Positions 243 through 56,002 are shown, numbered from the stretch's first letter. The stretch is DNA of 64,000 nucleotides from Chiloscyllium plagiosum (GCF_004010195.1 NC_057719.1:20287433-20351432), one strand, 5' to 3'. The notes: generated by a model from the letters alone, not told the origin. Numbers and translations: made by a program.

Positions 243-352
243 AAAATGCTGGTCAAAATCAGTAGGTCTGGCAGCATCTTTGGCAAGAAAGTAGAGTTAA
301 CGTTTCAGGTCTAGTGACCCTTCTTTAGAACCTGCTGAGCTTTTCCAGCAAT
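243..352 (-). mobile_element. Penelope-like terminal fragment (family D) with decayed hammerhead motif
   Basis: Minus strand reads CTAAAGA-AGGGTCACTAGACCT-GAAACGTT; same sequence caps the GIY-YIG-bearing element at 39540-40290. Confidence 0.65.
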
Positions 353-2415
353 AACAAACATAAATCTTTGATTTCATCTTAATGAATTTTGATGTGGGTT
401 TGTTTCAAAAATGTAAAGCTGCAACCCAGGATTTGTTAAACACCTTTTGGATTACCTTAACAAGTGATGGGACTAAAAAGGGAAAGGAGTTTATCAAACA
501 ATACCTTCCTGAGTCAGGTTTAAAAAGAGAAAAGTAATCATAATTTGAATTCCCCCTTTATTTGTGACATTTATCCCACCACGTCTCTCCTTTATCAAGT
601 ATTTGAAATGTGCCGCATTTAAAAAGCGCACGTGTCTATAAACTGCGCATCTTCTCATGGTCTTAGTTTTCACAATGAATTTGCGTCTCGCTTGTTTTTA
701 AAAAGAATGTTCTGCATTTTTACATTGTAGCATTATGGGGTAAGGTGGAAAAAGTAGATAAAATGAAATTTCAACTGTTGTATGATGAATAGGGTATAAA
801 TTTGTAACACTAACAGACTGTGTATAAAAGGGGAAGAACATAGCAGATGTGGTCTGACAATCATAATTGACAAGACTGACAAAATCTTGAAGGGTTGTGT
901 AGTGTGAACCCTTTTGGGATCCATCAGGCAATTCAACCAACAGGCTATAAATGAATTTACATAGGTGTCCTTCCATACCAGAATGGTCAAATCACTACAG
1001 ACGCAAGTTGGTACTGATGCAAGTTGTCGCAACTTTATTAAGGAACAGTAAGATGATCCCCTTAGTTGTTACAATACTTACCAGAATCTCTTGTAACTTC
1101 AGTTGGGTTTGTGAAATTTTTCTCTTTCTCTCTCACTCCAAACGGTGAGTTGGTCTTTGCCTTTACCACCCCTATCACTTCTTCTTCATCTCCAGAGGCC
1201 CAAGGGTTTGACCTGCAGGAAAACCCTGTTTTTATGCCCTTTTTTGGAACTTTCTATAGTCCTGGCCATTCAGGATGACTCACTTAATGGTTTGAAACAT
1301 CCCCAATCATTTGGATGGTTTGCTAATGTCTCTTTGTTTGTCCAACAGGGCCTGGTTTCCCTTCTGTCTGGTTTTTAATTTAAAATATGCAATTCTCCTT
1401 TATTTCATTGGACCATTGTTGAGATGTGCCTTTAACACTATGCAAATGTCATTAGCACCTGGCTGCTGTATCTGCATTGTGTCTAATTTCTGGGTTTTCA
1501 ATTTGTAGAGCTTTACTTAGCCAACATGTCATATACCCAGCATCCCTTGCTGTTTGACCAAGTGGCAAAATATGTGTATTTTAACAGTCATGAGACTTCT
1601 ACAGATGGGATAGATGGAATTTGAAATTTAAATCTTTTAAGACTGCTTGGAATGAAGTCTGATTGTTAGTTGAGAGCAATGATCAAAAGTTTCAGGATGG
1701 ACACATGTCTCAGAGTCGAAATAAAATTATGAAGATCTGTGGGTGTGGGACACACTCTAGCAATAGTGCAATTTTGGTGCAATGTAATAGCTAATGACTA
1801 ACAACAGTATATGCAATTATTTTGTCGTGACATTATTGATCATGAAGATGGAGTGACAGACCACTTATATGAAATATCAAATTACAGCTACTTTACAGAA
1901 ATTCTTTGGAAATAAATTAACTTTAAAAGTTGATTGTAATCAGACAGAGCAAACACAATCTGCAAATCATAACCAGTTTAGGCATAATTAAACCAGCCTT
2001 GCATTGAATTGTTTGTTTGATCACAAAAAGAGGTCAGACCCATAAAAGTCGTTGTTGAGTCCAAGAATGAGATTTCACATTGGAACGAAGAGTAGAAATT
2101 AACAGAAAATTACTAACTGATGCAATTATTATCACAACTTTAACTATGGTGCTGTACCTTTGACAGTTGTGCCTTTCTGGAATATCTTCAGTACTTAATT
2201 TATCTCTCTATCTTACTTTGGCTTTTTAAAGCATGCCTTTTTTGCCCAAGAGTTTGGTCATTAAGATACCTCCTCAAATGGATTGGTGTCATATTTGTTT
2301 TATCATGCTCCAGTGAAGTGTCCTGCGACATTTTATTATGTTAAAGGTGCCAAACATACATCAGATATTATGACAGGAGTGTACTCCAACCAGCAATCTA
2401 AAATCTCAATTCAAT

Positions 2416-2510
2416 GAAAACAGAAAGTGCTGGAAATGCTCAGCAGGTCTGGTCAGATCTGTGAAGAGAGAAACAGAGCTAACATTTTAGTTTGTGACCT
2501 TTCACCAGAA
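2416..2510 (-). mobile_element. Degraded Penelope-like terminal fragment (family D)
   Basis: AAAACAGAAAGTGCTGGAAATGCTCAGCAGGTCTGG...CAGAGCTAACATTT similar to 39560-39665. Confidence 0.55.
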
Positions 2511-3093
2511 TTAAAATGGCTCTGGAATAAACCAACCATCCTTCCTTTCTGTGACCTATATGTGACTTCAATCCCACAACAATGTGCTTGATGCTTTATT
2601 GATTTCCAAACATGTCCAATCAGCCACTCAGTTGGATCAAGCAGTTACAAAAGGGTAAGAAGCTTGAGACAAACTCTTCAGATGTGATGTGTATGTGCAT
2701 TACTTTAGATGCAATGAAGACTTCTCCAGCTCCAGTTGATCTTGCAAAGGTTTCCTAGTATTGAAAGGCTGCTGCAAGGTCACTTTGGTCACATGGACAG
2801 GCACCCAGGACATGAATTGGATTGGGTTTCATATTTGAGGTGCTCTTTTGCTCTCTTAGTGCTCACTCACCGAACGCCTGCATGTCTGCAGGATCCGTGA
2901 AGTAACATGTTGTTACTTCATACAGAACATTGAGGCTATCAATCCTGAAATATTGACTTGCTATTTTGCTCAGACACACAGACAGATTGCTTTTCACTCT
3001 TGTCATGAGGAAGCTGTTCTTCTTTATGAGCTGTGCACTGAGATGTCAATCTCATGTCAACTGCCTGCACATCACACTGCATGCTTATTCGAA

Positions 3094-3402
3094 GATTAGA
3101 TTAGATTACTTACAGTGTGGAAACAGGCCCTTCTGCCCAACAAGTCCATACCGACCCGCCGAAGCGCAACCCACATTCCCCTACATTTACCCCTTCAGCT
3201 AACACTACAGGCAATTTAGCATAGCCAATTCACCTAACCTGCACATTTTTGGATTGTGGGAGGAAACCGGAGCACCCAGAGGAAAGCCACGCAGACACGG
3301 GGAGAATGTGCAGATTCCACACAGGCAGTTGCCTGAGGTGGGAATTGAATCCGGGTCCCGGGCGCTGTGAGGCAGCAGTGCTAACCACTGTACCACCGTG
3401 CC
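3094..3402 (-). mobile_element. HE1-type V-SINE, full length
   Basis: tRNA-like head (GGCACGGTGGTACAGTGGTTAGCACTGCTGCCTCACAGCGCC...GGATTCAATTCC on minus), V-domain, (AATCT)n tail. Confidence 0.92.
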
Positions 3403-3668
3403 GTCCACAACCAACTAAATGGTCATTTTAAAAAGTGGAGCTACTCTTGCATCCAGTCGGGGGGGAATTGCTATCTGTTAGTAGTTCTTGATAGCATCAA
3501 AGATAATCCGTGCACAGTCCAGGGGCTTGGCCCATAGACTGTTGACAACTTGGGCTGCTCATTGTTAGGAAGTCTGTCTGACGACAGACAGAGCTTTGAG
3601 TAATGAGCTGAAAATGTGTTGCTGGAAAAGCGCAGCAGGTCAAGCAGCATCCAGGGAACAGGAGAATC

Positions 3669-3696
3669 GACGTTTCGGGCATAAGCCCTTCTTCAG
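3669..3696 (-). ncRNA. Minimal hammerhead ribozyme motif
   Basis: Minus strand CTGAAGA-A-GGGC-TTAT-GCCC-GAAAC-GTC. Confidence 0.8.
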
Positions 3697-3703
3697 GGAT
3701 TCC

Positions 3704-3731
3704 CTGAAGAAGGGCTTGTGCCCGAAACGTC
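3704..3731 (+). ncRNA. Minimal hammerhead ribozyme motif
   Basis: CTGAAGA-A-GGGC-TTGT-GCCC-GAAAC-GTC: intact CUGANGA/GAAA core, 4-bp stem II, GUC triplet; activity untested. Confidence 0.8.
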
Positions 3732-3884
3732 GATTCTCCTGTTCCCTGGATGCTGTCTGACCTGCTGCGCTTTTCCAGCAACACATTTTCAGCTCTGATC
3801 TCCAGCATCTGAAGACCTCACTTTCTCCTTTGAATAATGGTCAATCCTGTAGAGCCGTCACCATCAGTCAGGGGAATCAAGTAT

Positions 3885-6344: not shown

Positions 6345-6922
6345 ATTGTAAATGTTAGAAGTCTGAAGTTAAAAACAAAGTGCTGAAGAAATTTAGTAGG
6401 TCTGGTTGAATCTGTGGAGAAAGAAACAGAGTTAACATTATGAGTCCAGTACAGAGGAATTTTGAGTATCCAAACAAGATGGGCGGGCACTATTTCGTTC
6501 GGATAATTGATTATTCGGTTAATTGATTCAATGCCTCTCCTTTGGGACTCGGAGTTTTCTGAAGTTTCCTTTCTGCTCGTTCTGCCTGCCTTGCTTCCTC
6601 TCTCTGTCTCAGGGTTTGTTTCTGAGCAGAGACCACATTTGTGTGTAAGGGACCTGCAGCATTGCTGAAGCCTCCCACACCCCACCCCATCAGTTCAAAG
6701 AGATCGACACAGCGAGCACTTGCTAAGTCTGCTCCCCATTCAGGCAGCAGCATACAGCGCGCGAGCGCCACCCCACACTGTCCGTCCCCCCAACCCGTCC
6801 ATTCCAACCCCCGTGCATCCCCACCCCCACGTTCACACCTAATCTCCGCACAGAGGGGCAGCCGGACTGGACACTGACAGTAAGACTGCTGCTGCCTTTG
6901 GGAATTGAGTCTCAAAATAGCG

Positions 6923-6953
<31 letters not shown>

Positions 6954-7350
6954 AGACATTATGCCCATGTGTAAACTCCAGGTAAAATGGGGGGGGAAGA
7001 GAGAGAGAGAGGGCAGGCGGTAGGTCATTTGGAGACGGTGCTTGGGCTCCTATCGATGTCCAAGACTGTTTTCAGCAGCATTTCAGTAAGCTGGGTTCAT
7101 TTTTAATCATTGTAAACAAAAGACGCATTCAGTGTTGGGAACACCTCTTTGATGTAATGTTTCTACCGGGACCTTGAGATCGTCTTCGGATAATCCTAGA
7201 TTCGGATAATCAAGGTTCTTCTATATTACTGCTTTTCAGAACAGTCCAGTTCAAATAAGAATCACAGTGGATTTGAAATTTTAACTTTGCTTCTCGCTCC
7301 ACAGACGCTGCCAGACCTGTTGAGTTTCTCTGGCACATTCTGTTTTTATG
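6345..7350. mobile_element. Penelope-like family D fold-back relic interrupted by a MITE
   Basis: Arm 6345-6451 continues at 7224-7240; opposite-orientation arm at ~7272-7350 (CTCCACAGACGCTGCCAGACCTGTTGAGTTTCTC). Confidence 0.6.
6452..7223. mobile_element. Tigger/pogo-type non-autonomous DNA transposon (MITE)
   Basis: TA-flanked imperfect TIRs CAGAGGAATTTTGAGTATCCAAA / TTCGGATAATCAAGGTTCTTCTA, repeated subterminal TTCGGATAAT; contains (CA)n at ~6930-6954. Confidence 0.7.
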
Positions 7351-8040: not shown

Positions 8041-9275
8041 AATCACTGTTTTAAAAAGAACCAGTACTTGTGTACATATACTAGGAAGCATCATTGTCTT
8101 TATTTTCTTCCCCAAGTCACACACAGGCCATAAGTTAATCCAGGCGAGAGATGTCTCGCAGAGCCAACAAAAACCTTTGAGAAAGGTTCATCCCATCTGA
8201 CCAGGCACATCAGTGGCCAGCAGTGGGCCTTCACTAGTGTCAATAGCCCAGGAACAAATATAGTGTCTCCTAAGACCTGTCAGCCAAATTCAGGACCACC
8301 AGAATTACATTACAGGCAATGCCACCAAGGAGCAGTGGTAACTGCTGGCACTGCACCCACAGAGAGAAACAAGATCAAGAAGGGACCCAGGCTATAGGTG
8401 AGTGAGGCTGGGGTGGGGATCATCGGTGAATGGGCATATGTGAGTCACAAGCAAGGACAGGAAGGTGGAACTCAGCATCCACTTCCCAATATTAGATTCC
8501 TTGCTCTGGCACTGGATGTTATCAAACATGGCCAAACCTTCCTGGGAGCCTGCAAGAAAACATGCCACAGTTTGTTTTCTTTTCTTCATTTTTAGAATTT
8601 CATATTTCTTTTTATATCCAGAGTGCTATTACATACAACTAAATTTTGTTTTGTCCTGCCACCGAATCACCTGTGATATTTTTTCACCAATTAACCACTA
8701 CCAGTAAAACGACCGTGTTTGCAATTGAATAATTTACATGAAAATCCCATTGAGGGCCATGTAGGCCATCAAATGTGAGGGATAGGTAGGGGGAGCAGGA
8801 GGGGGCTGAATCAAAATGGAGTTGGAACAAGGAATGGTTTATTTTTCAGGATCCCCACATGATGAATGCCTGCTGCTACTTCTGAATACCAGAAGGGCTG
8901 GGATGAGGCCCTGAAATAGTCATAATTTACCTATCTGAGGGCCTCAATTGACATGTGGGTGAGAAAGCTGTCCACAAGCCTTCCCATCACATATTTAGTC
9001 TTGGTGGAGGTGGGTAGGTGACCAAATTCCCATCTGGTATCATCTGAGACAATTAGTGAACCATCTCCAAACTCACATCAAGGAGGGCATTAAACTCCAC
9101 AGCATAAAGTTAGATAAAAATTGTAATTTCTTTATCACCATTGGATTCATGTCCCCCACCTTTACTCGAATATCTATGACCATACGCGATTGTAGGGAAG
9201 CACAAAGCATCAGAGCTGAGAGTACAGGTGATGTAGGACAGTGAGAGAGGCAAGGCATTAAGTATCTTACCTTGT

Positions 9276-9310
9276 GGATGTAAGTTTGTTCACTGAGCTG
9301 GAAGGTTTGT
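9276..9310 (-). mobile_element. Tiny Penelope-like fragment (family B-related)
   Basis: GGATGTAAGTTTGTTCACTGAGCTGGAAGGTTTG matches 28630-28663; flanked by T(A/T)TCTTACCTTGT duplication (9263-9275, 9311-9323). Confidence 0.6.
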
Positions 9311-10344
9311 TTTCTTACCTTGTTAGTGTCTTGCCTTGTTAACCATGGTTACAAATTTGAACTTCTTTCTAGAGAACATTCAGGTTATGTTTTCAGTGAC
9401 GTTGGCATTGAGGTCTCAAAGTACTTTTCCTCACTATCAGGGAAGCAGTATCTCCTCGTGTTGACTGCCTCAAAAAAACTGAAATCTGGGCCCCTGATCC
9501 TGCAACTCCTCCACCTTCTGAAGCATTTCCTGCTCTCAGAAGTCCAATGCTTCTCTCCTTTTCAGAGATTCAAGCCGCTTTCAAATGGTTTCCAATGGCA
9601 ACCAGTCTGGGTCGCAGACTGTGTGTGACTACATCAGTGTGCTGAGGTGTGAGAGGAAATTTTATCTCAGACAGAAGACTGCTTATAGTCTGCTGACATG
9701 TATCAAAGTGGATTCATTTCTATTATAGAAAAGCTGACTTCTTGCAGAAGTAAATGTTATCATTCAATTCCATTTTCAAATAAAATTACATTAATGAAAA
9801 TTATTAAACAAACATTTTTGTTGTATCCAATAGCAGCTTTGCCCACACGCTGAGTGTTCCTGAGACTAATTTTGTAAGTTGTAATATTACAATGTGTAGC
9901 CATGATTTTTTGATTAATTACAATTAACTGAGTAAATTAAGTGATCTAAAAGGAAATACCAATGAAGCAAATAATTTTTCACTGATCCTTTCAAGAATAC
10001 AATAACTTAGATACATAAATGTGAAACTAATACAATTGTGTATGCTTATATTGCATAAGCTAATTATTCTCACTATTTTAATTGTCTTTTAATATTAAGT
10101 AGCAAAGGTTTTTGTACAGCATTTACTTCTATCAGCTTTTATAGTTGAGATAGTAGTGGCCAAGCAAGCCATTCGGTTCAAGGGCAATAACTCACAACAA
10201 CTGCTGATCTTCAATTCCTGCATTGCTTGAAAGAATACAAAAATTATAATTTATTATCAATACAAAGAAGAATATTCCAAGGCACCTCACAGAAGTACCA
10301 TCAAACAATGCTTGATGAAACAAAGAATGAAAACAAGAAGATAG

Positions 10345-15227: not shown

Positions 15228-15645
15228 TATTCATTCATGGGATGTGGGCATCACTGACAAGATCAGCATTTACAGAACATCCCTAATTGTCCAGCGGGTC
15301 AGTTCCAAGTGCATTATGGTCAGCCAAACAGGTAAGGACAGTATATTCCCTGCCCTATAGGGTCCGAATGAACCAGATGGCATTTTTTTACAGCAGTCAA
15401 ATGTCATTTCACTGAGTCGAGAACGTAGTGCACAGCAGGTCAGGCAGCAGCCAATGAGCAGGAGAATTGACGTTTCAGGCCTTCATCAGGAATTACACAG
15501 AGTAAATTAGGTGAGCATTTTATTCCCTTTTGTTTTTAAAAAAGTCAAGTTTCATCATTTGTTATGGTGGGATTTGAACCCATGTCCCCAGAATATTAGC
15601 CAATGTTCTGGATTATTGGTGACATTTCCACTCCACCACCATCTC
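15228..15645 (-). mobile_element. SacSINE1-like Deu-SINE with a PLE fragment inside (~15418-15495)
   Basis: Tail ATTCATTCATGGGATGTGGGCATCACTG, GAACCAGATGG core, tRNA-like head GGTGGGATTTGAACCCATGTCCCCAG. Confidence 0.65.
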
Positions 15646-17984
15646 CCTTGTTGACAGGTTACTGTCCCTGATGGGAGAGTCTAGTAATGTGCGACATGTG
15701 GGACATAATAAGCGGTCTCCCAATTAAGACAGAGATGTCAAGGAATATTGTCTTTGTTTTTTTTGGAATTCTTTACCAGAGAAAAGTAGACACTGGATTG
15801 TTAAACACCCCCAAGACAGGGGGTTTGATCTACAAGCAAGAGAAAAACAGGTAAGAAAGGGGATTGAAGGCCAAAATTAGACCGGTTTTGATCTTATTGA
15901 ATGGCAGAGGAGGCACAAGAGACAGAATGGCTCATATCTCCTCCTAACTATTGTGACCTTACAATCTTCAGGTGATTGGCTACCAGGAGTCAATGTGGAT
16001 CGGCAGGATTTATTGCAACTTCAGATACAAGAAACAGAATTTTGATTGAGCTGCTATCTGAAGGCCATGGATGGTGGATGAAGGCTATGAAAGCTCAAGA
16101 ATAGTCAAGTATGGATTAGACGGAGGAATGGCTGAGAGTTTCAGCAGTCGATGAACTGAGACAGAGATGATGTACGTTTTTTGTTATGAATTGGGTATTG
16201 AATGGAAATTATTTCTGTTTGAGGTTGCCTCAAAAGATTACAGAGTGTAATTCCATTCCTTTGACCCAAAATTAATATCCAATGTTGTTTAAATGCAAAT
16301 GCGCTCCCTCCCTTTCAGCTCTCAAAGTTTGAATAAATTGAATGTGGGCAATGCAATCATTTGGACCTGCATTCAGTGTCTGAAATGACATGTTATCTAA
16401 CAGGTACAAAAAATGACATAATGGAAAAATGAAGATGTGAAGGTTATACCTTTAAAGATTGACACAGGAAGAGACAGGCTGATTGTAATGCAAAGTGCTG
16501 ATTGCAATTGAGAGAACAACAGGCTGGTGAAGTAATCTTGCATGTGCTGCCTCACAACCTTTTCAAATATAAGCTGTCTGACATGAACAAGAGTGGCAAG
16601 GTGAGCAAACAATGACACATCATTAAACGGAGTCTGCTCTATATAGGCTTTGGATGTTTTTACAACCCTACTTTATGCAGTGAATAGCTGTAAGTGTTAC
16701 AAATGAATTGCAAAGATTGTTGAGAAGCATTTGGGCAAATCTAATGAGGGAAACATAAAGACTGCAGGTGACAAATATTAGTGGCTATGTGCATTATATC
16801 CACCATTAACTGGCAATTAGAATACAATCAGTCAACCTTTGTTATCAGGAAATTACAAGTGCATTGCTCACATATGTCGAACAGGCAAATGAAAGCTTGG
16901 TTTGACATGTTGAGGCATGGAATACTAATACAGTGAGGTGATGCTGAATTTGTCCAAGTCAATGATATGAAAATTGAGCAGTAGGTGCAAATTTGGGCAT
17001 CCTCATGATAAAAAAGCAATTATAGGCAAAATAAGATTGCAACAAGAGGGAATAGGAGATTATAGTTTCAAAAAAGGGCTCCAAGGTTCTCGGAAATGAT
17101 TTCTACATTTAAATGTGAAAAACAAAGGATTGTTTCAACTAATTGGTGAGTCAGCAACAACTGGCCATAATGGACATGTTCAAAAAGTAAGTGAGAAATC
17201 TTTAAATACAAAGGGATTTTCAGAATGACACAGTTTCAGCAGAAGTGCTGATTGGAAAAATGATGATAACGCTCCTTTGAATGGATTTGGATGGTTCTTT
17301 AAAAAAGAAGAATACAAAGTGGCTAGTGTTCCTTCACATTATTGTTTCAGCAGCAAGGAGAGTGAGACCGTCGACCGGGGGTTAACGGGTGTTATGGATT
17401 AGGCCAGATCACTCAAAACACTCTTAAACAGACATCCCAGACTGTAACTTTGCTATTTGTTTCAGTAATTATAAAGTGAAAATTACCCAGAGTAAGTTAG
17501 CTTGGTTTTAAAACAGACAAAAAGTTATTCACAAAATAACAGAATGAAACACAAACATATAGAATACCCACAGAAATCTGTCTATCCAAATTAGATTTCA
17601 TTATGCTGTTCTGAACATACGCAACAGTTCCAATAAACAAAAATCCCTTGAACGCAGAGCAAAAATGAAACAAAGGCTTACAGGTCGAAGTTAGAAGTGT
17701 CAAAGGAGAGAGAGTCGAGCAGCCTGGTTCCACACAGCTCACAGCTGAACTGACTCAAACAAGACTTCAGCTTCCAGGATTGACCACTTCCCTTTTATTA
17801 TACAGGTTACTTCTAAAACATGAAAGCGGTGGCCTAAAGTCTCATCTGTTTACGTATAAACAAAAAGGACTCCCTTTTATCTCTGTACCAACCCAGTCAT
17901 TTTGGAGCCCGGACTGTTTTACGACCCTTTTGAAAAAAAATCAAGGACTCAGTATCCTTGAGAAAAGGAACAGCTTTTAGGAAA

Positions 17985-18688
17985 ACGATCAACCCTGCCC
18001 GTCCAATCGCCACCAGGACAGAACCCCACTGGTCCTCATCTACCACCCCACCAACCTCCAGATACATCGTATCATCCTTCGTCATATCTGCCACCTCCAA
18101 ACAGACCCCGCCACCAAGGATATATTTCCCTCCCCTCCCCTATCAGCATTCCGGAAAGACCACTCCCTCCGCNNNNNNNNNNNNNNNNNNNNNNNNNNNN
18201 NNNNNNNNNNNNNNNNNNNNNNNNNNNNNNNNNNNNNNNNNNNNNNNNNNNNNNNNNNNNNNNNNNNNNNNNNNNNNNNNNNNNNNNNNNNNNNNNNNNN
18301 NNNNNNNNNNNNNNNNNNNNNNNNNNNNNNNNNNNNNNNNNNNNNNNNNNNNNNNNNNNNNNNNNNNNNTCCAGTTTCCTCATTTCCCCTCCCCCCACCT
18401 TGTCTCAGTCAAATCCCTCGAACTCAGCACCGCCTTCCTAACCTGCAACCTTCCTCCTGACCTCTCCGCCCCCACCCCAGTCTGACCTATCACCCCCACC
18501 TTAACCTCTTTCCACCTATCGCATTCCCAATGCCCCTCCCCAAGTCCCTCCTCCCTACCTTTTATCTTAGCCTGCTTGGCACACCCTCCTCATTCCTAAA
18601 GAAGTGCTTATGCCCGAAACATCAATTCTCCTGCTCTTTGGATGCTGCCTGACCTGCTGAGCTTTTCCAGCAACACATTTTTCAGCTA
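17985..18688 (+). mobile_element. Penelope-like element fragment (family A), spans an assembly gap
   Basis: DRTPLVLIYHPTNLQIHRIILRH...DIFPSPPLSAFRKDHSLR (PLE RT-to-GIY-YIG linker); 3' end with decayed hammerhead CTAAAGAAGTGCTTATGCCCGAAACATC. Confidence 0.8.
18173..18369. other. Assembly gap (N run)
   Basis: Ns. Confidence 1.
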
Positions 18689-18849
18689 CTTACTACCTGA
18701 CCCCAACTCTGTAAAAAATGCTGTTCCAGTAACATAATTATAAACATTACATTAATTTAATCTCAAGACCACACCGTCTCTGTCTTCTCCGCTGTCTTCA
18801 ATCTTCAACTGCTAATCTCCCTGGATCATCTTCATTCTTTTTAGTGTGA

Positions 18850-19485: not shown

Positions 19486-19692
19486 GTAGGAGGAAATGAG
19501 GACAACAGATGCTGGAGATCAAAGTTGAGAGTGTGATGCTGGAAAAGCACAGCAAGTCAGGCAGCACCCAAGGAGCAGGAGAATCGATGTTTCGAGGATA
19601 AGCCCTTTATCTGGCTTATACCTGAAATGTCGATTCTCCTGCCCCTCGGATGCTGTCTGACCTGCAGTGCTTTTCCAGCATCACATTCTCGA
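19486..19692. mobile_element. Fold-back Penelope-like insertion (family A), ribozyme cores decayed
   Basis: Inverted arms, tail on left arm, perfect 13-bp duplication CTCTGTTAATTAA (19473-19485, 19693-19705). Confidence 0.85.
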
Positions 19693-19828
19693 CTCTGTTA
19701 ATTAACTTTTAATTCCAGACTTGATCTTATTTAAATTTTACCATCTCCTATAAAGTCTGACAATAACATTGAAATCAGTGTCAGTTGTTAAGAGTAATCT
19801 GATTCACTAATTTCTTTTAGAGAAGGAA

Positions 19829-38769: not shown

Positions 38770-38880
38770 AGTGCCAAGATTAGAGTGGTGCTGGAAAAGC
38801 ACAGTAGGTCAGGCAGCGTTCGAGGAGCAGGAAAATCGACGTTTCAGGCAAAAGCCCTTCATCAGGAATGACGGCATTAA
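38770..38880 (-). mobile_element. Short Penelope-like unit (family A) with near-intact hammerhead at 38838-38865
   Basis: Minus CTGATGA-A-GGGC-TTTT-GCCT-GAAAC-GTC; flanked by GCC(T/C)ATTTGG duplication. Confidence 0.8.
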
Positions 38881-39539: not shown

Positions 39540-40290
39540 AACAAGCTGTAAATGCTGGAAATCAGAAACAGAAACAGAAATTGCTGGAAAATCTCAGCAG
39601 GTCTGACTGCATCTGTGGAGAGAAAGCAGAGTTAACATTTTGGGTTCAGTGACCCTTCTTCAGAAATGATGGTAACTAGGAAATAGTTTTTTTTTAATGC
39701 AGAACATAGGCTAGGGATTGGAGGTAAGGAGTAAACAATAGGTGGGAATAGAGCCCAAAGAGAGAAGAACAGTTGGACAGACAAAGGCGTAGATAATAGT
39801 CAGCCTAGAAGAATAACTGGCTGCTAATGGGGACTGCCAATGACTAACAATGGGTAGTGTGTAATAGCAGACCATGTGATAAGAAGGCCTGGTGTGTGGG
39901 GATTGGGGTGAGAACATGGGCAAAGGAGCTGCAAGCCCTAAAGTTGTTGAACTCAATATTGAGTCCAGAAGGCTGTATAGTTCCCAAGTGGGAAATGAGG
40001 TGTTCTTCCAGCTTGCATTGAGCTTCACTGGAGCTCTGCAGCAAGCCTAAGACAGAGGTGTTGGCCAGGGAACAGGGTGCTGAGTTGAAGTGGCAGGCAA
40101 CTGGAAGCTCAGGTTTTTTTTGTGGACAGAAGGGGTGCTCTGTTAAAGAGTTAACCAGTCTATGCTTTGTCTCGAGGAGGCCACATTGTGAACAGCGAAT
40201 GCAGTAGTCTAAATTGTGTGAAGTCCAGATAAAATGCTGCTTCACCTGGAAAGTGCGTTTAGCCCTTGGGTACTGAGAGGGGAGATTCAC
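39540..40290 (-). mobile_element. Penelope-like element 3' part (family D) with GIY-YIG relic
   Basis: ORF 39844..40290 FQVKQHF..TS.NLDYCIRCSQCGLL...PVACHFNS...KLEEHLISHLGTIQPSGLNIEF; terminal CTGAAGAAGGGTCACTGAACCCAAAATGTT. Confidence 0.88.
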
Positions 40291-41529
40291 TTTGTACTTC
40301 TACCATGCACTCTGCTTAAGTGAGCAGCTTACCCTATTCCCTCCTAATCAGCTCCACTGTTTCTTTTACTAATCTTTCACAGTCAGATTTTTGAAGAACA
40401 TTTTGCTATTGATTTAGTGCAGCTTACCATCCTTTTCTCACGTTTCCTCTTAGCCTCCCTGACTGCAGTCTTAGCCTCTCTCCCGCATTTTGGGTACTCT
40501 TCCTGATTTCTATTGCTATTATAATACATCACACTCCTCCCCTTTTTCCTTCTCTTCTCATCAATATTCTTAGTCATCCAGGCTACGGATACCATGGATA
40601 CCATGTACTTATTTCTTTATGGGTATGTACTTAGCGTGCACCTTCTTCATCTCTCTTTTATAAATTTCCCATTTTTCATCCACCGTTTTATTCACCAATA
40701 TGGATTTCTAAGCAACCTGCTCCAATTCAACTTTTAGACTCATAAAATCTGTCCTTTTCCAGCCAGATCTTAATTTTTGTCTGATTTTTGTCCTTTTCCA
40801 AGTTAATGTTGAACCTAATTATATTATAATCAGTGTTTCCCTAGTGCTGCCCTGCTCTGACATTCTCCTGCCTCATTTCCGAGGACGAGATCCAGCTCCA
40901 CTTAGGAATGGGAATGTATTATTCCAGAAAGTTCTTCTGCCCACTTTGCAGGATTTCCTCCCACTCCATGTCCCACACTCTTTCTGTTTCCCAGTATTCA
41001 CTCGGGTAATTTAAATCACCAAATATTACAGCCCTGTTCATCCTGCAGATTTCCATACTCTGCTGATGAATGCTGTCTTCTACTTCAACCCTACTATTTA
41101 GAAGTCTAATCCATGATCTGGTACCAAAGGATGACCCTTCTGTTTCTTCCCTTAAAACATGTATATTCAAATTCAGGTAGTGATCTCAGTTCAGGATTAT
41201 GATACTATCTTCAACGTAGACATCTCCTCTTCCTACTCACCCTGTTTCTACTAAAGAAACATATAACCTTGGGATGTTAAGTATTTGGTTCTCTTCTTGC
41301 TTGAGCCACATCTCTGGCAATGCTACTTTGTCATATCCCGCCAGATTCTAATTCCCCAATTTTGTTCATAATACTCTATGCATTTGCATGCAGATAATTT
41401 GACCCTGCCATTATCTGTTCTTTGCCCACTGGTTGGGGAAGGGACCATTTCTTTGTTCACTGTCAACTCAAATTTTCCCTCCCTTCCTTTTCCCAATTCC
41501 CAATCTTCTCTCTTTTCCCCTGTCCAATT

Positions 41530-41860: not shown

Positions 41861-42634
41861 ACTTCCAAAAGTATGCCCATTCACTAAACCATCCCTCTAC
41901 CTAACATGTTTTAATCCATCCCAACCACACTGTTTACTCTCTCAGACAGAAGATAAGTTTCATTTCCGTTCAGATGAACAGCCTTTTCTGAACAGCCTTC
42001 ACCTTTCCTATAAGTGATCCCAATGTCTCAAAAATCTTAAATCCCTCCCTTTTACTCTATCCATCAAGCCACACATTCACCTCCCCAATGTGCTTTTGCC
42101 TAAATGGTGAGGCTCATGGCACAGGTAGTATTTCTGAGATTCCTAACCTGCAAATCCTGCATTTCAATCTACTCCATACTCCTGAAACTGATTTTGCAAG
42201 ACCTCCAGGCTGTTTTTCCCTATGTCACTGTTTCCCGTATTAACCACAACCACTGGTTGTACACTCTCCCTTTCCAGAATTTAACTGAACCATTCTGCTA
42301 TGTCCCAAACCTTGTACTCAGGAGGTCATCCTTTGGTACCAGATCATGGACAATTCATTCCTCTGTTATGGTGAGTGAACTGACTTCTCCCAGAATCCTC
42401 AGTCACTTCTACCCTCTGTTATATATTCTTCGTTTGATTTTTCACACACATCTCACTGATTAGTTCATTCGGGCACACATCTACTTCTTTTATTTCATGG
42501 TTGGTTCAAGTTTTAGTGGGATTACATTAAATGCAAGTGACTTCTGGCTATCTCATGTTTTATCAAGACTGCAATAGTCTATTCCTTACATCCCACAGTA
42601 ACACATAGTTTCTCCTTGGTTACTGGATACCTTG

Positions 42635-42762
42635 ATGAAAGTGAGAACTGCAGACACTGGAGATTATAGTCGAGAGTGTGTTGCTGCAAAAGCACAGCTG
42701 GTCAGGCAGCATCCGAGGAGCAGGAGAATCAATGTATCAGGCATAAGACCTTCACCAGGAAA
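42635..42762 (-). mobile_element. Short Penelope-like unit (family A), decayed hammerhead plus tail
   Basis: Duplication ACTGGATA(C/T)CTTG (42622-42634, 42763-42775). Confidence 0.8.
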
Positions 42763-42934: not shown

Positions 42935-43441
42935 CACCTGATGAAGGAGCAGCGTTCTGGAAACTTGTGATTTCAAATAAACCTGTTGTACTATAACTTG
43001 GTGGCATGTGATTTCTAACTTTGTGCACCCCAGTCCAACACAGCACCTCCATATCAAGTCAGGATGAACATAGCACTCACCTTTTATTTTAAGAGCAAAT
43101 TTTAAATTCAATTGCATTTACAAATAAATTTTACGAGGCCTTGTTTTTGGTGTCAATGGGACTCATCAACATTTGGTAAACCCAAGCTAAGTACAGGGGA
43201 GCTCTTGTGGCATGTGTTGCATCATACCCTCTGGAGCAAGAGGCCCAGTTGCAAGTCCCATCTATTCCAGAGCCGAGCGATAGCAGCTCTGAAAAAAAAG
43301 CAAGCAAACTATTGCAAATTCTCGAGATCTGAAATAAAAACAGAGAGAGTACTGGAGAAGCTCAGCAGACTTGGCATTGTGTGTACAGAGTGAAATTGGG
43401 TTAGCATCTTGAGTCCAATGGCTCTACTTTTAAATTTGGAA
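42935..43441 (+). repeat. ~500-bp direct repeat, copy 1
   Basis: Nearly identical to 50610-51110 (about 15 substitutions and 2 small indels by eye). Confidence 0.95.
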
Positions 43442-44942: not shown

Positions 44943-46445
44943 CTGTTCATTATTACTGGACCTTACTAACTGCATTTCCTACATTACAACATTGCTTAGT
45001 GTCGACACTTCAAACATCCTCTGTTGTCTGTAAAGTGCTGTGGAATATTCAAAGGTTATGAATGGTGCTATCTAAATGCAATTCCTTTTCACAGTTTTTA
45101 GTAACTGAATCTGTAGTGTGATTACTTTAACTTTTAATGTTTGAAAACCAATTCTAAGATTTAAATGGATTCTGCTTTAATTAACCTACAGAATTCCTGT
45201 TTATCTCTTGGGGCCTAAATCTCAGCAAATCCCATTACAAAATAAATGACTATTGACCAAACAAAAATTAGACTATAAATTACAAATTGATGAAAGTAAA
45301 AATTGGGGCAAAGGCACCCAATGTGTTTCCCGAAGCTCTGTTAGTACAACAATGATTTTTTAAAATTACTTCTGTTGAAATGTCGACACTTGACAGAAAA
45401 TGATGCATTAAATTGAATGTATTGTTGAAGGCACGAAACATATGCATAATTGCTAAACTTTTGATCACTTTAACCTGGCTTCAGGCTGGAGAGTGTGGTC
45501 TGGGAATTGACCAGTCTTTTGCAAATTAATAAAAGCTTGAGACAGATATGTACTAGCATCAGAAAAATATAAACCGAGGTCTATCAAATATCAATTTATT
45601 GCAAATCGATTTCCACTAATGTCATCAAATTGATCCTGTTTGCCTTCGATTTCAAAGAAATGTTTCATTGTTTACTACTGTAATACAGACAGTCTCTGTT
45701 CAGAAGTTCATTAGCAAGTTGAGTTATGAGCAAGTCAGAACACAATGCAGGACAATGGAAAGCAATTGTTCATAAAGCCAGGAAACAGTTGTATGTCATG
45801 TCTTTAAAGTCACAACTATGCGTAAGGTCATGTTCGTAAGTACAAGTACTGATAAGTTAGATATCCATAATTTCGAGATCTGCTGTATATAAAATGCTGG
45901 ACTGTTTTTTTTGAGTTTATATGAATAATGCGCTTCTGTAACATCATAGAACACAGAAGGAAGCCATTTGGTCCAGTATTTCTGTGCTGGCTGCATGGAA
46001 AAAAATATTTGAATTGTCCATCCCTCAGCCTTTTTATCCTCTTAGTCTGACAATTATTCCTTTTTTACCTTTTTATCTGGAAAAATAAACATTCCACCAA
46101 GATGTAATTGACACTGAATTGTTTTAACTGAACTTGATCAAATATGGCAACTTTGTACATAATGTACATAATCTGATGAGTTACATTTCCACCCATAAGC
46201 ACAGCCTCCAGTGACTCTTTAATCAGAAGAATTTTTTTAAAATTCAAGATGGCGCTGACACTGGACAATTCTTTGCAAAACTCCCTACAGCAGACCTTAT
46301 TCTAATATTACTTATAACCATTCTGCACTTTTAAATCTAAATTCCAGGTCAGTGAAAATTAGCTTGCTAATGCTGATTTTACTTTGCATGCATCCTGCTC
46401 AATGTAACCTGTCTTGCTCTGTCTAAGCATCCAAAGATCTGTATG

Positions 46446-46548
46446 AAGGGCTAATGAAGGGCTTATGCCTGACCTGATGTGTTTTTTTCAGCACCACATT
46501 TTTTGACTCTGATCTCCAGCATCTGCAGTCCTCACTTTCTCTCACTCT
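46446..46548 (+). mobile_element. Short Penelope-like unit (family A), internally deleted
   Basis: CTAATGAAGGGCTTATGCC...TGATCTCCAGCATCTGCAGTCCTCACTTTCTC; flanked by GATCTGTATG duplication. Confidence 0.75.
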
Positions 46549-50609: not shown

Positions 50610-51110
50610 CACCTGATGAAGGAGCAGCGTTCTGAAAACTTCAAATAAACCTGTTGTACTCTAACTCGGTGGCATGTGACTTCTAACTTTGTCCACCCCA
50701 GTCCAACACAGCACCTCCATATCAAGTCAGGATGAACACAGCACTCACCTTTTATTTTAAGAGCAAATTTTAATTTCAATTGCATTTACAAATAAATTTT
50801 ACGAGGCCTTGTTTTTGGTGTCAATGGGACTCATCAACATTTGGTAAACCCAAGCTAAGTACAGGGGAGCTCTTGTGGCCTGTGTTGCATCATACCCTCT
50901 GGAGCAAGAGGCCCAGTTGCAAGTCCTACCTATTCCAGAGCTGTGCGATAGCAGCTCTGAAAAAAAAAGCAAGGAGACTATTGCAAATTCTCGAGATCTG
51001 AAATAAAAACAGAGAGAGTACTGGAGAAGCTCAGCAGACTTGGCATTGTGTGTACAGAGTGAAATTGGGTTAGCATCTTGAGTCCAATGGCTCTACTTTG
51101 AAATTTGGAA
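50610..51110 (+). repeat. ~500-bp direct repeat, copy 2
   Basis: See 42935-43441; continues into PLE family D body to ~51330. Confidence 0.95.
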
Positions 51111-51394
51111 CAACAATGAGGGAAACAAAGGGATTGCTGATAGAATCTCAGGAGGGAAAAAAGCAGGTAATGGGGACCATAAGTATGTGCAAATAGGTTG
51201 ATTCTGCTGAAAGCTGCCCATGTCATGACAGGGCCTGGAATGTGGGGATGAGTAAAGAACATGGAATGAAAATCAAATTCAATATTGAGTCTTGAAGGCA
51301 GCCGAATCCCCAAGTGGAAAATGAGTTGCTAAAATGGATGGTGGGTCTGATAAAAACATTTTCATGGACAAAGCTCAGGTTTAAACCAAAGGCA

Positions 51395-51797
51395 AGAGTG
51401 TGGATTAGTGGTGCTGGAAGAGCACAGCAGTTCAGGCAGCATCCGAGGAGCAGTAAAATCGACGTTTCGGGCAAAAGCCCTTCATCAGGAATAAAGGCAG
51501 AGAGACTGAAGCGTGGAGAGATAAGCTAGAGGAGGGTGGGGGTGGTGGGGTTGAAGTGTTCCGAGGTTGAAGATGAGGCGTTCTTCCTCCAGGCGTCTGG
51601 TGGTGAGGGAGCGGCGGCCCAAGACCTCCATGTCCTCAGCTGAGTGGGAGGGGGAGTTGAAATGTTGGACCACAGGGTGGTGTGGTTGATTGGTGCGGGT
51701 GTCCCGGAGATGTTCCCTATAGCACTCTGCTAGGAGGCGTCCAGTCTCCCCAATGTAGAGGATACTGCATCGGGAGCAACGGATACAATAAATGTTG
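51395..51797 (-). mobile_element. Penelope-like element 3' part (family A) with GIY-YIG relic
   Basis: IYCIRCSRCSILYIGETGRLLAECYREHLRDT...QHFNSPSHS...RRLEEERLIFNLGTLQP. Confidence 0.9.
51461..51488 (-). ncRNA. Minimal hammerhead ribozyme motif, intact core
   Basis: CTGATGA-A-GGGC-TTTT-GCCC-GAAAC-GTC. Confidence 0.85.
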
Positions 51798-52144
51798 ATT
51801 TACGGAAGTACAGATATGGGTGGTAGTCAAATTAAAACTGGCTGGTAAATCATTTTTTATATTCATATTTTATATAACAGAACACAGACAGAAACATCTA
51901 CGGCAATTGAAACAGAATCCATCAAGGATTGCATAGAGGAAAGACACCGTGAGAGCATCAGTGGAAACATTTAAACTGCTTCCTGAAGCATAACGTTTAA
52001 AAAAGATGAGAACATGGAGGTAGGGGACATGAAATCAAAGCAATTTCACCAGAAAACCCTAAACAACAGAAAGAAACTTTAAAGTGAAAGGATCTTCGAG
52101 AAAATGTTTATATTTTCACTACAGTCAGAGCTTAAAAATAATCA

Positions 52145-52650
52145 TGATTTGGAGATGCCGGTGTTGGACTGGGGTGTACAAAGTTAAAAATCACACAACA
52201 CCAGGTTATAGTCCAACAGGTTTAATTGGAAGCACTAGCTTTTGGAGCGTCGCTCCTTCATCAGGTGGTAGAGGAGGGTTCAATGCTAACACACAGAATT
52301 CATAGCAAAAACTTACAGTGTGATGTAACTGAAGTTATGCATTGAAAAATTGATTGTCTGTTAAGCCTTTCATCTGTTAGAATACCATGATAACAGCTAA
52401 CCCGAGAATGCAACTTTTTAAAAAACGTTTTGTGAAAGAAGTGAAATTATCACAGTATTCTAACAGATGAAAGGCTTAACAATCAATTTTTCAATGTATA
52501 ATTTCAATTATATCACACTGTAAATGTTTGCTATAAATTCTGTGTGTTAGGATCGAGCCCTCCGCTACCATCTGATGAAGGAGCGACGCTCCGAAAGCTA
52601 GTGTGCTTCCAATTAAACCTGTTGGACTATAACCTGGTGTTATGTGATTT
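52145..52650. mobile_element. Fold-back Penelope-like insertion (family C)
   Basis: ~200-bp inverted arms, ~40-nt tail on left arm, duplication TTAAAAA(T/C)AATCA (52132-52144, 52651-52663); PLE assignment rests on the hammerhead and architecture, no ORF seen. Confidence 0.8.
52572..52600 (+). ncRNA. Minimal hammerhead ribozyme motif (family C), intact core
   Basis: CTGATGA-A-GGAGC-GAC-GCTCC-GAAA-GCTA with CAT/GTG stem I; inverted partner 52236-52264 has GAAA>AAAA. Confidence 0.8.
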
Positions 52651-53599
52651 TTAAAAACAATCAAACTGAGAATTCACTCCAGGCCAGACTCTGTCAGCAA
52701 GTTTAACTTTAGGGAAATTTTTGAAGAAGAACAACAGCCATAACTATTTTTACTATTTTTGCATCAATCAGCAAACAACTTGGAAACGATAATATAGTAC
52801 AGAAGATGAAGCAAATGTACTGAGAATGAAACTATTGAGGCAGTAGAGTGAAAGAATGTGGAGGTATAATTGATGGGATCAAAGAAAATATTTGATGTAT
52901 CTCAAGACCTGGAAATAGCTGCAGCTGACAATTATACAACAGCTTCATAGAACTGAGAAGCTGATGCAATCCCGTTGACCTGAAACAATCTAAAAATGTC
53001 CTTATGTGTTTATATATGTTGTCATCTGGTATTAACCTTTAGCTTAGTGTGAATACTCTTGCCTTTAAGTCAGAAGGTTTTGAGTTTGAACTGTGACTTT
53101 CAAGTGCACCTGAAAAAATAATGACCAAGTCAATATCAGGAATGTCAGAAAGACAATGAATTATTTTGATATACACTGTGAAACAGTGGACATTTTAATC
53201 AATGAAACTGTTCCACTATGACATTCTTGAGTTATCAGGTACTGTAACAGCGGCATTGGGTTAAAACTTAATAGGAAAAGATCACCTTAAGAACATTAAA
53301 CCTTTTATTACTTTTTCTTTGTGCTGAGTACTATCCCTTTGTAATTGCGAGCTTATGCTTGTATGTGGGCATTTTAGATAGATAGAAATTTATTGTTCCT
53401 TGTATTTGGTGCAAATACAGTAAAATGAATGTCATGTCATTTGATGTCTTGTCTGTTATTTTTCTAGTGTGAGTAACTAATAAACTCAGTCTTCCTTTCA
53501 CTGAAGATAACCTTGTTTTTGTGTCTGTATTATTTCTGATTAACTCATTTATTAGATTTAAATTGGAGTGATATATAGCTGTGTGCCAAAAAGAGCATA

Positions 53600-53945
53600 A
53601 ATAATGAAGGGCATGGAGAGAATAAATAGACAAGGTACTTTCCTTGGTGTGGGGAAGTCCTGAACTAGAGGGCATAGGTTTAGAGCGAGAGAAGAAAAAT
53701 TTAAAAGGAACATAGGGGAAAATTTTTCATGCAGAGAATGAACTGCCAGAGGAAGTGTTGGAGGCTGGTACAATTATAACATTTAAAAGGCATCTGGATG
53801 GGTTTGTGAATAGGAAAGATTTAGAGGGATAAGGGCCAAGTGCTGGCAAATGGAACTAGATTAGGTTAGGATATCTGGTCAGCATTGACAAGTTGGACTG
53901 AAGGGTCTGTTTCCGTGCTGTGCATCTCTATTACTCTATGAGTTT
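53600..53945 (+). mobile_element. HER1/CR1 3' fragment
   Basis: GAACTAGAGGGCATAGGTTTA...GGGTCTGTTTCCGTGCTGTGCATCTCTA. Confidence 0.88.
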
Positions 53946-55354
53946 ATGATAAATTGAGGAGGTTGAAGAGAGTAAAGCTGAATCATGCCTCCTTTTCTTG
54001 GCCATAGAAAGTGTTTTCAGCTATTTATGCAATTATTTCTCTTATGTTACGACATGGACTTTGTGGCATAAACAATTGTGTTTATGCACTTGCTTAAAAA
54101 GTTTTGAATTCATTTGAATCTCAAAAATGGCATGGACTGCAGACTATGGTATGGCTGAGAAATACATTTTGCTAGCTTTTATAAAAAATTTTGGAATGGG
54201 ATTCAATGCAGACATGTGAACGTAGATGTTTACTGCCCCAATTTCACTGGGCAGAAGTCAGAGGTATAAATGAATATATTAGTACAAGTATGTACAATGC
54301 TACTGTCAACCCCAAAATAACGGGGTAATTTAAATATAGCTCAGTTCTAGGCTAGCTTAACTGAACTGAAGTCCTGATGAGGGCCATACCAAAGCTTCAA
54401 CTTAATTTCTCTTTCAACAAGATTTAATAGTATTCTTTCCTACCACTTTAAAAGCCACCCAATGTTTAGAGTTAAAATTCACTGAAGCAATATAATGTTT
54501 TCATTTTGCATTACCTTATACTTGGCCTTTTTAAAACAGGACATCAGACTAAGTGGCTGCATCATGGCACGCCAAATCTATAGTATTGTTTATAGCTACT
54601 GGGTAGCAATACAGGATGAATGCCACCTTTACTTATGTCATTTGTGATCAGTCATTGTCATTGGAAGGGAACCTGTGTTTTGAGTTATGTTCAGTCTCGA
54701 TTTTTAACACAACAATAATTTTGAACATTGATCTAATATGACAAGCCTCTTAGTAATACCCTTAAAAGTTTGAGCATTATTGGTGGAGTGTAAATGTAAA
54801 CATGGAACTTATTTGAATGCTTTTTAACAAATGACTTTTTATTGTAGATAACTTGTACATTTATTAAAACCTTTACATTGGGTTCCATACTGAAGTAAAG
54901 TAGCAATTCCAGGTAGCTGCTTTTGTTGTATAACTTATTTTGTTTTTTTCTTTCATTTTATAAGGCTTCAAATAAAATAGCTTTGAAAGTAAATTAAATG
55001 AATTTAAACTGAAATTGAATTGAATATTAATCTCAAATGTGTCTGCAGATGTGCAGGCTGAAAGTTCTTTTGAAATAAGAAATGGAAATATGATTTAATT
55101 AATCAAAGACTTCAGATATATGGAGTCCTTTCATACAAACAATGACTGACATTTTCTCCCACTTTCATATATTGTTAATATTCCAAAATATTTCTTCATT
55201 TTCATTCATGTCCATTGATTCATGTTTTATCAAGTGCTACAAATGTAATTGAGGCAGCTAAAGGCAGGTAAATGGTGTCATTTACCAACCTGATTCACAC
55301 TGTTGGCTTCTAATGAGATCTGCTTCACTTCAAAGAGTATTTCATCTGATTCAT

Positions 55355-55635
55355 CTTACTTTTTTTTTCTTTTTTTCTTTGATTTCTGTCCTTTTTTTCC
55401 TTTCATTTTTTTCCTTTATTTTCTATTTCCCTTTCTCTTTCCCTTCATTTTTTCCCTTTCTTTCCCATCTTCCTTTCCCATCTTTTTTTTCTGTTCTTTT
55501 AATTTTTTCTTTTATCCTTTCATAACCTTCTTTTCTTTCTTTCCTTCCATTCCTTTATTTTCTTACTTTTTGTTCTCTTCTTTTTTCTTTCTTTTTTTTC
55601 CCTTTCTTTTCTTTTCATTCTTTTCTTTCTTTCTA
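55355..55635. repeat. T/C-rich low-complexity tract
   Basis: ~280 bp almost entirely T and C. Confidence 0.95.
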
Positions 55636-55791
55636 CCTTGCTACCTACATGCATCAACTAAAATGGCTGTTTATCCATTGAACATTCGGGACTGCACTGG
55701 CACTGGAGCAGGTGCGTAGTAAAAGGTTGCGTGCGTAATGTATTTCTATTTCTTCATTCTAATAGCAGAAAGTCAGCCATTCTTCACAATG

Positions 55792-56002
55792 ATTTGGAGA
55801 TGCCGGTGTTGGACTGAGGTGTACAAAGTTAAAAATCACACAACACCAGGTTATAGTCCAACAGGTTTAATTGGAAGCACACTAGCTTTCGGAGTGTCGT
55901 TCCTTCATTCACTCTTCACCTGATGAAGGATTGACGCTCCGAAAGCTAGTGTGCTTCCAATTAAACCTGTTGGACTATAACTTGGTGTTGTGTGATTTTT
56001 AA
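55792..56002. mobile_element. Fold-back Penelope-like insertion (family C), minimal form
   Basis: Inverted arms meeting at the hammerhead cores (plus motif 55920-55948); perfect 14-bp duplication CATTCTTCACAATG (55778-55791, 56003-56016). Confidence 0.85.

Follow-up and report, generated by a model that had tools for sequence, protein, structure and literature searches.

Minimal hammerhead motifs in a bamboo shark locus probably mark truncated 3′ ends of Penelope-like elements

Why should one stretch of shark DNA hold so many copies of a small self-cleaving RNA motif, and do any of them cut the transcripts of their host? The stretch in question (hereafter, the window) is 64,000 nt of one strand from Chiloscyllium plagiosum (GCF_004010195.1, NC_057719.1:20287433–20351432). 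An initial annotation had recognized in it about 20 insertions of at least four families of Penelope-like elements (PLEs), most of them carrying a minimal hammerhead ribozyme, and had suggested that some copies remain able to cleave host transcripts. Here we conclude, with a probability of about 80%, that these copies are dead-on-arrival 3′ end pieces (a pseudo-long terminal repeat (pLTR) with an optional tail) of endonuclease-bearing PLEs, inserted by target-primed reverse transcription. PLE coding sequence lies upstream of the motifs; the insertions show target-site duplications (TSDs), two alternative 3′ ends and inverted pairs with a single tail; 5′ ends pile up just before the CUGA of the core; decay looks neutral; and poly(A) is added at a fixed place in one family.

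Hammerhead motifs in the window

A strict motif, defined as the core with a stem II of 3 bp or more and an ACGT or AGCT palindrome, occurs seven times in positions 1–57000 and in none of 20 Markov shuffles; with one mismatch permitted the figures are nine and 0–1 per shuffle. Chance matching is refuted by this excess and by the fixed place of the motif within repeat families that have TSDs, although the core is short and several loose matches from the direct scan belong to no family. An Rfam scan returned ten matches up to an E value of 10, all far under the gathering score and none a hammerhead.

Searches seeded from seven copies, together with alignments, gathered 32 element ends in four families, A to D (30 without one local duplicate of ~500 bp), which represent 23 independent insertions and bear out the earlier count. 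Numbered from the C of CUGA, motifs were recovered at 3704(+), 3696→3669(−), 38865→38838(−) and 51488→51461(−) for A, at 23970→23938(−) and 28703→28670(−) for B, at 52572(+), 55920(+) and 42938(+) for C, and at 328→299(−) and 39663→39634(−) for D, in each case where the initial annotation had placed them. Its statement that most insertions carry the motif was too generous: the core is whole in only 7 of 27 scored copies (3696, 3704, 38865 and 51488 of A, 23970 of B, 52572 and 55920 of C, and none of D). The other 20 cores are damaged and still recognizable, and five further ends start inside or after the core. Among the copies singled out earlier, both D copies, 28703 and 42938 (loop AGC, ending GGAA-ACTT) are damaged, 55920 has a whole core with a weakened stem II, and 23970 has lost stem I.

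The published descriptor (supplement to Cervera and de la Pena 2014, PMC4209133) has the core CUGANGA + GAAANNUH with a stem II of 3–7 bp and adds a stem I no shorter than 3 bp; it is passed in full by 52572 and 55920 alone. Such a stem I is present in C (CAC/GTG), B (GCA/TGC and CCA/TGG) and D 328 (4 bp), and in every family A copy it measures 0–2 bp, below the descriptor's 3 bp. Helix III is absent, being replaced by the palindrome ACGT in A, B and D and AGCT in C. The minimal type I fold with a palindromic stem III is thus supported. Read by eye, stems I, II and III differ with pairing retained between families and between subfamilies B1 and B2, and to that extent the proposed stem II covariation stands. 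It fails among the copies of family A, in which there were no compensatory stem changes and the differences amount to decay.

PLE hammerheads as described in 2014 (PMC4209133) likewise have a type I core with an extra base after A9, a G10.1–C11.1 pair, no helix III, palindromic positions 15.2/16.2 and a short helix I. They also occur as many families per genome, mostly as single truncated copies together with close opposite-strand pairs. Family A departs from them in that its helix I has only 2 bp and fails the descriptor. Sharks are not named in those text parts or in the supplement file that were searched.

Identity of the carriers

GIY-YIG endonuclease sequence is joined to three of the families, as annotated earlier, and lies on the same strand, upstream of the hammerhead (A, 51793–51548; B, 24265–24654 and 28901–28848; D, 40299–39938 and 51325–51182), and a PLE origin of the motif carriers is supported. 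No coding sequence was seen in the window upstream of any family C copy, though the insertion architecture of C (inverted partner, one-sided tail and TSD) matches that of the other families. No reverse transcriptase (RT) domain of these elements was found within the window. Homologues from bamboo sharks, at 82–92% identity, do carry RT and PF26215 domains. For the B endonuclease piece, 74 candidates included 19 homologues, of which the best are 91–92% identical, are named from Chiloscyllium punctatum and carry both domains. RT is present in the close homologues P0001 and P0010. The A piece has three homologues among 95, the best at 82% identity. These matches by themselves point to a host among the bamboo sharks or their near relatives.

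A relative of family A, P0020 (82% identical to its endonuclease piece and 74% to a second coding piece at 17981–18172), contains the CX2-5CxxC linker, which is a Neptune trait (Craig 2021, PMC8557442). The linker is deleted in P0021, is missing from the window sequence itself and gave no match in the four family B homologues checked. In family B an ATG lies where stem II starts, and its open frame reaches the element end. Judged from these sequence characters, A is Neptune-type and B is Poseidon-type; D appears Neptune-like by a likeness to P0020 of only 44%. Family B resembles PAc, the Anolis Poseidon (Frangieh et al. 2024, PMC11167929), in the position of its ATG and open frame, in having two 3′ ends 30–40 nt apart, in the lack of a Zn-finger linker and in a retained, uncleaved hammerhead. 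Its cut site lies 28–29 nt after the ATG as against 26 in PAc, its tail ends ~103 nt into the frame as against 111–118, and its copies in the window are dead.

Family B endonuclease sequence is also found in carpet-shark host isoforms (P0003, P0014, P0017 and P0019; MAP3K7, NT5DC1, CUEDC2 and one more), forming the C terminus of P0003. These are either exonized PLE ends or prediction artefacts.

Anatomy of the insertions

TSDs of 9–14 bp were found at 10 of the 17 insertions tested (score at least 9; null below 0.8%), scores being counted when they exceeded 99% of 2,900 random flank pairs; in an eighteenth insertion the TSD was seen by eye. Each family has two alternative 3′ ends 30–40 nt apart, located at +81 and +120 in C, at ~+73 and +103 to +109 in B, and at ~+93 to +99 and +123 to +130 in A. 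In DNA contigs of two organisms, loose ends accumulate at the C ends 52183 (488) and 52144 (1,068; 1,087), at the A ends 46541 (2,211; 2,434) and 51401 (434), and at the A position 51492, all of them among the best six per run. Head-to-head pairs make up seven of the insertions; their junctions lie in or beside the core, and all six pairs that could be resolved combine one tailed and one tailless arm. The identity between arms did not separate a fold-back from a two-template origin of the pairs. This anatomy of TSDs, tails and inverted pairs is the published anatomy of PLEs (Arkhipova 2013, PMC3846280; Craig 2021, PMC8557442), where Neptune and other endonuclease-bearing (EN+) elements show 5′ truncation, an adjacent inverted copy, a one-sided tail of 30–40 bp, TSDs, palindromic junctions, and TATA and initiator-like motifs in the pLTR.

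Metagenome contigs of unknown animals contain the same head-to-head hammerhead pairs (L070 401–481, L083 and L071), and one contig has two identical motifs on one strand ~5 kb apart (L038 and L039), as expected for a whole element. In the window, a 500-bp unit made up of a C copy, ~270 bp of unique sequence and a reversed D end occurs twice (42935–43441 and 50610–51110), in copies that are 95% identical and 7.2 kb apart. It is bounded on either side by the 5′ edge of a hammerhead (C −3 and D −9), and its contig depth of ~2× the unique level suggests two copies, in the second organism likewise.

From 30 ends in 57 kb, the density of element ends is 525 per Mb (354–750); whole cores amount to 123 per Mb (49–253) and descriptor matches to 35 per Mb (4–127), the latter from two in 57 kb. 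With a genome of a few Gb, and if the window is typical, extrapolation from it would give 10^4 to 10^5 descriptor matches genome-wide, exceeding the coelacanth and Xenopus figures. The published figures are 4,000 per genome for coelacanth and 9,000 for Xenopus (Cervera 2014, PMC4209133). Contig depth over the A and C bins is 3–5 million compared with ~14–17 on unique contigs; depth of this kind is not copy number and is read only as 'very many', in qualitative agreement with the density. The high copy number claimed at the outset is supported.

5′ ends and poly(A) sites

Element sequence from further upstream is retained in 10 of the 30 ends, and the remaining 20 are short. Fifteen of these 20 start between −6 and +5 of CUGA, where uniform loss would place 0.6 (p ~1e-18); the others start at +10, +13, +43, +44 and +61, and none starts at the cut site (~+28). 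At least four of the short copies (36207, 42758, 46451 and 35419) were already short at insertion, as their TSDs show. Upstream, TATAAA is found at −40 in two of three long C copies and at −53/−47 in two of three long B copies, and both long A copies and D 39663 match the initiator consensus YYANWYY with its A at −4.

A metagenome scan yielded 119 loci, none of which shares more than the motif with the window. Seven clusters were compared (52 matches from unknown hosts, chosen for a whole core). The best upstream sharing was at most 30 nt in 24 of 48 informative copies and more than 60 nt in 14, four of the latter being the copy's own inverted arm. The upstream limits are sharp and family-specific, at 22–26 nt in one metagenome family and 14–18 nt in another.

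RNA evidence comes from one single-cell poly(A) run, of which 8,418 reads were placed on 45400–53200 at 85% likeness; nearly all lie on repeats, so they may stem from any genomic copy. A poly(A) end 12–15 nt past the family C A(A/T)TAAA is present in 1,164 of them, the T or A runs attaching at 52206 (511 reads), 52209 (309) and 52632 (344) on the hammerhead-sense strand. By the usual consensus, AATAAA and ATTAAA are poly(A) signals; one or other occurs in all eight family C copies, and at the addition sites a GU-rich stretch follows and the window has no A run. The sites lie 27–30 nt after the cut site, inside the DNA ends of the element, so an RNA that ends there is not itself the start of reverse transcription. 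X22, a second run of the same sample, gave no placed reads, and in X21 the unique bins, 11 out of 30, were without coverage (2% of the run sampled).

Origin of the short copies

In the mechanism that we propose, the PLE protein would nick both target strands with a stagger of 9–14 bp (~13 bp). In PAc, two tail sites serve as internal starts of reverse transcription, extension takes place on both nicked strands and the template is uncleaved RNA (Frangieh et al. 2024, PMC11167929). Element RNA would start a few bases before the hammerhead, and that of family C would end 27–30 nt after the cut site; these two limits would therefore leave one hammerhead at each RNA end, as a double hammerhead requires. 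On an RNA beginning just before the hammerhead, reverse transcription would consequently run off after 80–130 nt, and the short complementary DNA (cDNA) could be integrated as a solo copy or, from both strands, as a head-to-head pair. Long copies would come from read-through RNA or from a jump to the 3′ end. To the combination of an RNA start just before the hammerhead, a family C end 27–30 nt past the cut site and short copies as run-off cDNAs we give roughly even odds.

The short cDNA may be likened to retroviral strong-stop DNA, and retroviruses likewise provide the U3–R–U5 layout with which the pLTR may be compared: promoter, start, hammerhead, poly(A) site and start of reverse transcription. 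That the PLE pLTR is organized in this way, with short copies that are strong-stop-like and C copies that act as portable poly(A) sites ending host RNAs, is a tentative proposal that we consider rather doubtful.

Several observations weigh against the proposed origin. A significant TSD was absent at 7 of the 17 insertions tested, and the contig pile at 51492 is confounded by two A subfamilies that diverge at the same place. The −6 to +5 interval was picked after the data had been seen, with three boundaries set by eye; initiator matches are short and were sought post hoc. Most short C copies start at −3 and not at the TATA-predicted −8 to −10, none of the short B copies begins close to the start predicted for it, family A has no true TATA (TTATCT at −34/−36), and D 51101 and C 52264 lack a TATA-like match. 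The 10 long ends out of 30 require read-through or strand transfer. No pile of read starts or ends that would mark transcription initiation was among those listed for this 3′ poly(A) library, and A(A/T)TAAA was missing from all five A, B and D copies checked. In D. virilis, moreover, the start of PLE transcription precedes an intron and lies more than 120 nt upstream (Schostak 2008; Cervera 2014).

The same pile of 5′ ends could arise on read-through RNA if reverse transcription stalled or was released at a folded or protein-bound hammerhead, or if the endonuclease cut an intermediate. In A, C and D alike the ends coincide with the 5′ arm of stem I even though the sequences upstream of it are unrelated, head-to-head junctions lie in or beside the core, and A and D have ATT at −4, 5′-ATT-3′ being the sequence that PAc prefers (Frangieh et al. 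2024). Family C, however, has no ATT at its boundary, the double hammerhead is unstable as an unaided fold, and other families stop 14–18 or 22–26 nt upstream, and a distance that depends on the family is not what a structural stall would lead one to expect; we hold this explanation to be unlikely, if a serious one. Less plausible again are non-autonomous families resembling short interspersed elements (SINEs) or retrozymes, whose masters would begin at the hammerhead and be mobilized in trans. The uniform shortness of the copies, their TSDs and their very high depth in contigs would suit them, and PLE-derived non-autonomous monomers have been described, one chondrichthyan included (Li et al. 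2026, bioRxiv 10.64898/2026.07.22.740005). Such non-LTR retrozymes resemble the copies here in being PLE-derived, non-coding, dispersed monomers with a type I hammerhead, yet they are defined by head-to-tail tandem units that each have a hammerhead, and the window contains no tandem array of the motif and no run of two or more successive units with complete hammerheads. Short and long copies also share ends and subfamily marks, and the short copies lack the upstream TATA region. Truncated 3′ ends made by target-primed reverse transcription remain our preferred account.

Cleavage of host transcripts

The suggestion that some copies cleave host transcripts went unsupported: the motif needs a partner and, in the one PLE assayed together with its protein, that protein as well; five of the seven whole cores would be buried in hairpins; and the core is no better conserved than the tail. 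In its favour, there are seven whole cores and family RNA is plentiful. Two of these cores, 52572 and 55920, satisfy the published descriptor and have stems I and III in common; both are on one strand, with 3.3 kb between them. Each of these two, however, is downstream of its own inverted arm and folds into it. In folding predictions five of the seven whole cores pair with the inverted arm in long hairpins, leaving a stem II probability of 0.0 (52572 and 55920 included). The probability is 0.03 for 38865 and 0.6–0.7 for 51488, both of which have a 2-bp stem I and which lie 12.6 kb apart. Designed double hammerheads reach −5 to −15 kcal/mol, whereas the best two-strand fold reaches −21 to −28; the designed form thus lies 10–17 kcal/mol above it.

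The core is no better conserved than the tail: non-CpG mismatches affect 11 of 160 core positions (6.9%) and 75 of 768 tail positions (9.8%; p 0.30, from 16 of the 32 copies), a tail figure that includes subfamily differences. A split by CpG yielded no CpG sites in the tail and was not used. Strand use is even (13 plus, 17 minus). Read coverage of family C begins upstream of the core and extends to the poly(A) site, so uncleaved RNA exists. No host exon was found, Pfam searches on 150 of 216 stop-to-stop frames giving transposon domains and sub-cut-off matches only.

Published assays agree with a passive state. PLE hammerheads had no activity as monomers and low activity as dimers (Cervera 2014, PMC4209133). 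In PAc, cleavage occurred only with the PLE protein and insertion proceeded from uncleaved RNA (Frangieh et al. 2024, PMC11167929). One of nine Xenopus dimers cleaved and eight did not (Li et al. 2026, bioRxiv 10.64898/2026.07.22.740005). That a fraction of the copies cleaves host transcripts as dimers is accordingly a very improbable reading. The scattered copies are predicted to be passive, host RNA being a most unlikely target for them, and the best explanation is that the hammerhead served the RNA of the parent element itself.

Individual insertions

Family A comprises two head-to-head pairs, at 3609..3829 (3696(−) with a whole core and no tail, 3704(+) with a whole core and a tail, stem I of 1 bp; 12-bp TSD at 3594–3605 and from 3828) and at 19490..19697 (19613(−) tailed, plus arm from 19614 tailless, both damaged; 13-bp TSD). 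Its short copies lie at 15410..15493(−) (core 15489, stem II part-deleted, start −4), 36203..36332(+) (core 36207 damaged, start −4, tail, 14-bp TSD), 38769..38872(−) (whole core 38865, 2-bp stem I, tailless, within an RT fragment of a long interspersed element (LINE)), 42634..42762(−) (core 42758 damaged, start −3, tail, 13-bp TSD) and 46444..46546(+) (internal deletion, tail, 10-bp TSD). One long copy, 17981..18690(+), has a Neptune-type coding piece (17981–18172), an N gap, a pyrimidine-rich 3′ untranslated region (UTR) and a damaged, tailless end (core 18596); the other, 51401..51793(−), has GIY-YIG sequence (51793–51548), a shortened 3′ UTR and a whole core (51488–51461) with a 2-bp stem I and no tail.

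Family B includes a fragment at 9268..9315(−) from which the hammerhead is missing (11-bp TSD) and two pairs. At 23859..24841 (13-bp TSD), 23970(−) has a whole core, no stem I and a tail, and 24765(+) is damaged and tailless; GIY-YIG sequence (24265–24654(+)), the ATG where stem II starts and TATAAA at −53 accompany them. The B2 pair at 28630..28963 has a tailless minus arm with a GIY-YIG end (28848–28901) and damaged core 28703, and a tailed plus arm from ~28900, with a TSD of ~12 bp that contains one mismatch.

In family C, the copy at 30560..30710(−), whose core 30612 is damaged, retains upstream sequence with TATAAA at −40 and an initiator-like TTCACA at −8, and carries ATTAAA. Short copies lie at 35413..35540(+) (core 35419 damaged, AATAAA, tail, 9-bp TSD) and 42935..43058(+) (core 42938 damaged, start −3, AATAAA, tail), the latter duplicated at 50610..50735(+) with stem III deleted. 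The pair at 52144..52654 (13-bp TSD) joins 52264(−), which has one core change and a tail to 52144, to the tailless 52572(+), which has a whole core, a 5-bp stem II and a 3-bp stem I; its ATTAAA signals and addition sites occupy 52612..52632(+), where 344 reads end and the GU-rich stretch follows, and 52206..52226(−), where poly(A) is at 52209 and 52206. The pair at 55789..56003 (14-bp TSD) has a tailed minus arm from +3 of the core and a tailless 55920(+) with a whole core and weakened stem II.

No core of family D is intact. Its pair at 236..352 has a damaged minus core at 328 (CTAAAGA) and a plus arm from 329, well past the core. The other D sequences are a short copy at 2413..2512(−) (core 2508 damaged), a fragment at 6345..6452(−) that begins inside stem II, an old copy at 7247..7350(+) (core 7252 damaged, A–T-rich stem II variant), a long copy at 39547..40299(−) (GIY-YIG 40299–39938, 3′ UTR, TCATTTC at −4, core 39663 damaged, tail), an old long copy at 50990..51325(−) (GIY-YIG end 51325–51182, 3′ UTR, core 51101 decayed) and an old end at 43321..43441(−) that duplicates 50990–51110.

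Other sequence in the window

A G+C-rich satellite of 36 bp (189 copies, strong strand skew) occupies 57192–64000, reaches the window end and is the cause of long spurious open reading frames. A SINE of ~300 bp, which we take to resemble HE1, is present in seven copies (1–235, 3092–3390, 19830–20160, 30048–30352, 32436–32637, 41526–41832 and 44634–44942), one of which adjoins the D pair at 236. Many fragments of LINE RT and endonuclease (Pfam RVT_1 and Exo_endo_phos_2) lie at 11000–13500, 21600–22070, 27800–29700, 30700–31300, 35740–36100, 50267–50610 and 53600–53950. A hAT transposase dimerization domain at 5325–5555(+) is over the Pfam cut-off, and a Bunya_G2 match at 25886–26095(+) is under it (E 3e-4, 150-protein scan) and probably due to chance. 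A low-copy unclassified repeat occurs at 45738–45888 and 49189–49338, its two copies 68% identical.

Discussion

With this window sharks join a class of ribozymes known since 2014, perhaps at a density above any counted so far if one extrapolates from this one locus. A literature search conducted mostly without subscription papers and Repbase or Dfam entries returned no account of shark PLE hammerheads, of strong-stop-like PLE copies or of a poly(A) signal in a pLTR. The available portions of PMC8557442 and PMC3846280 report neither 5′ ends piled at the hammerhead edge nor, between hammerhead and tail, a poly(A) signal in use.

The value of the finding is mechanistic, as it bears on what the PLE hammerhead does and on how tails, inverted pairs and solo ends arise: many TSD-bounded copies in one genome record both ends of the product of reverse transcription. 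For host RNA, 3′-end formation is a likelier effect than self-cleavage. Together, the piled 5′ ends and the poly(A) site in use make an LTR-like PLE cycle testable in a concrete and inexpensive way. If the U3–R–U5-like organization were true, hundreds of thousands of short shark copies would be integrated run-off cDNAs, the pairs would be two cDNAs primed from both nicked strands, and the full RNA would carry exactly two hammerheads.

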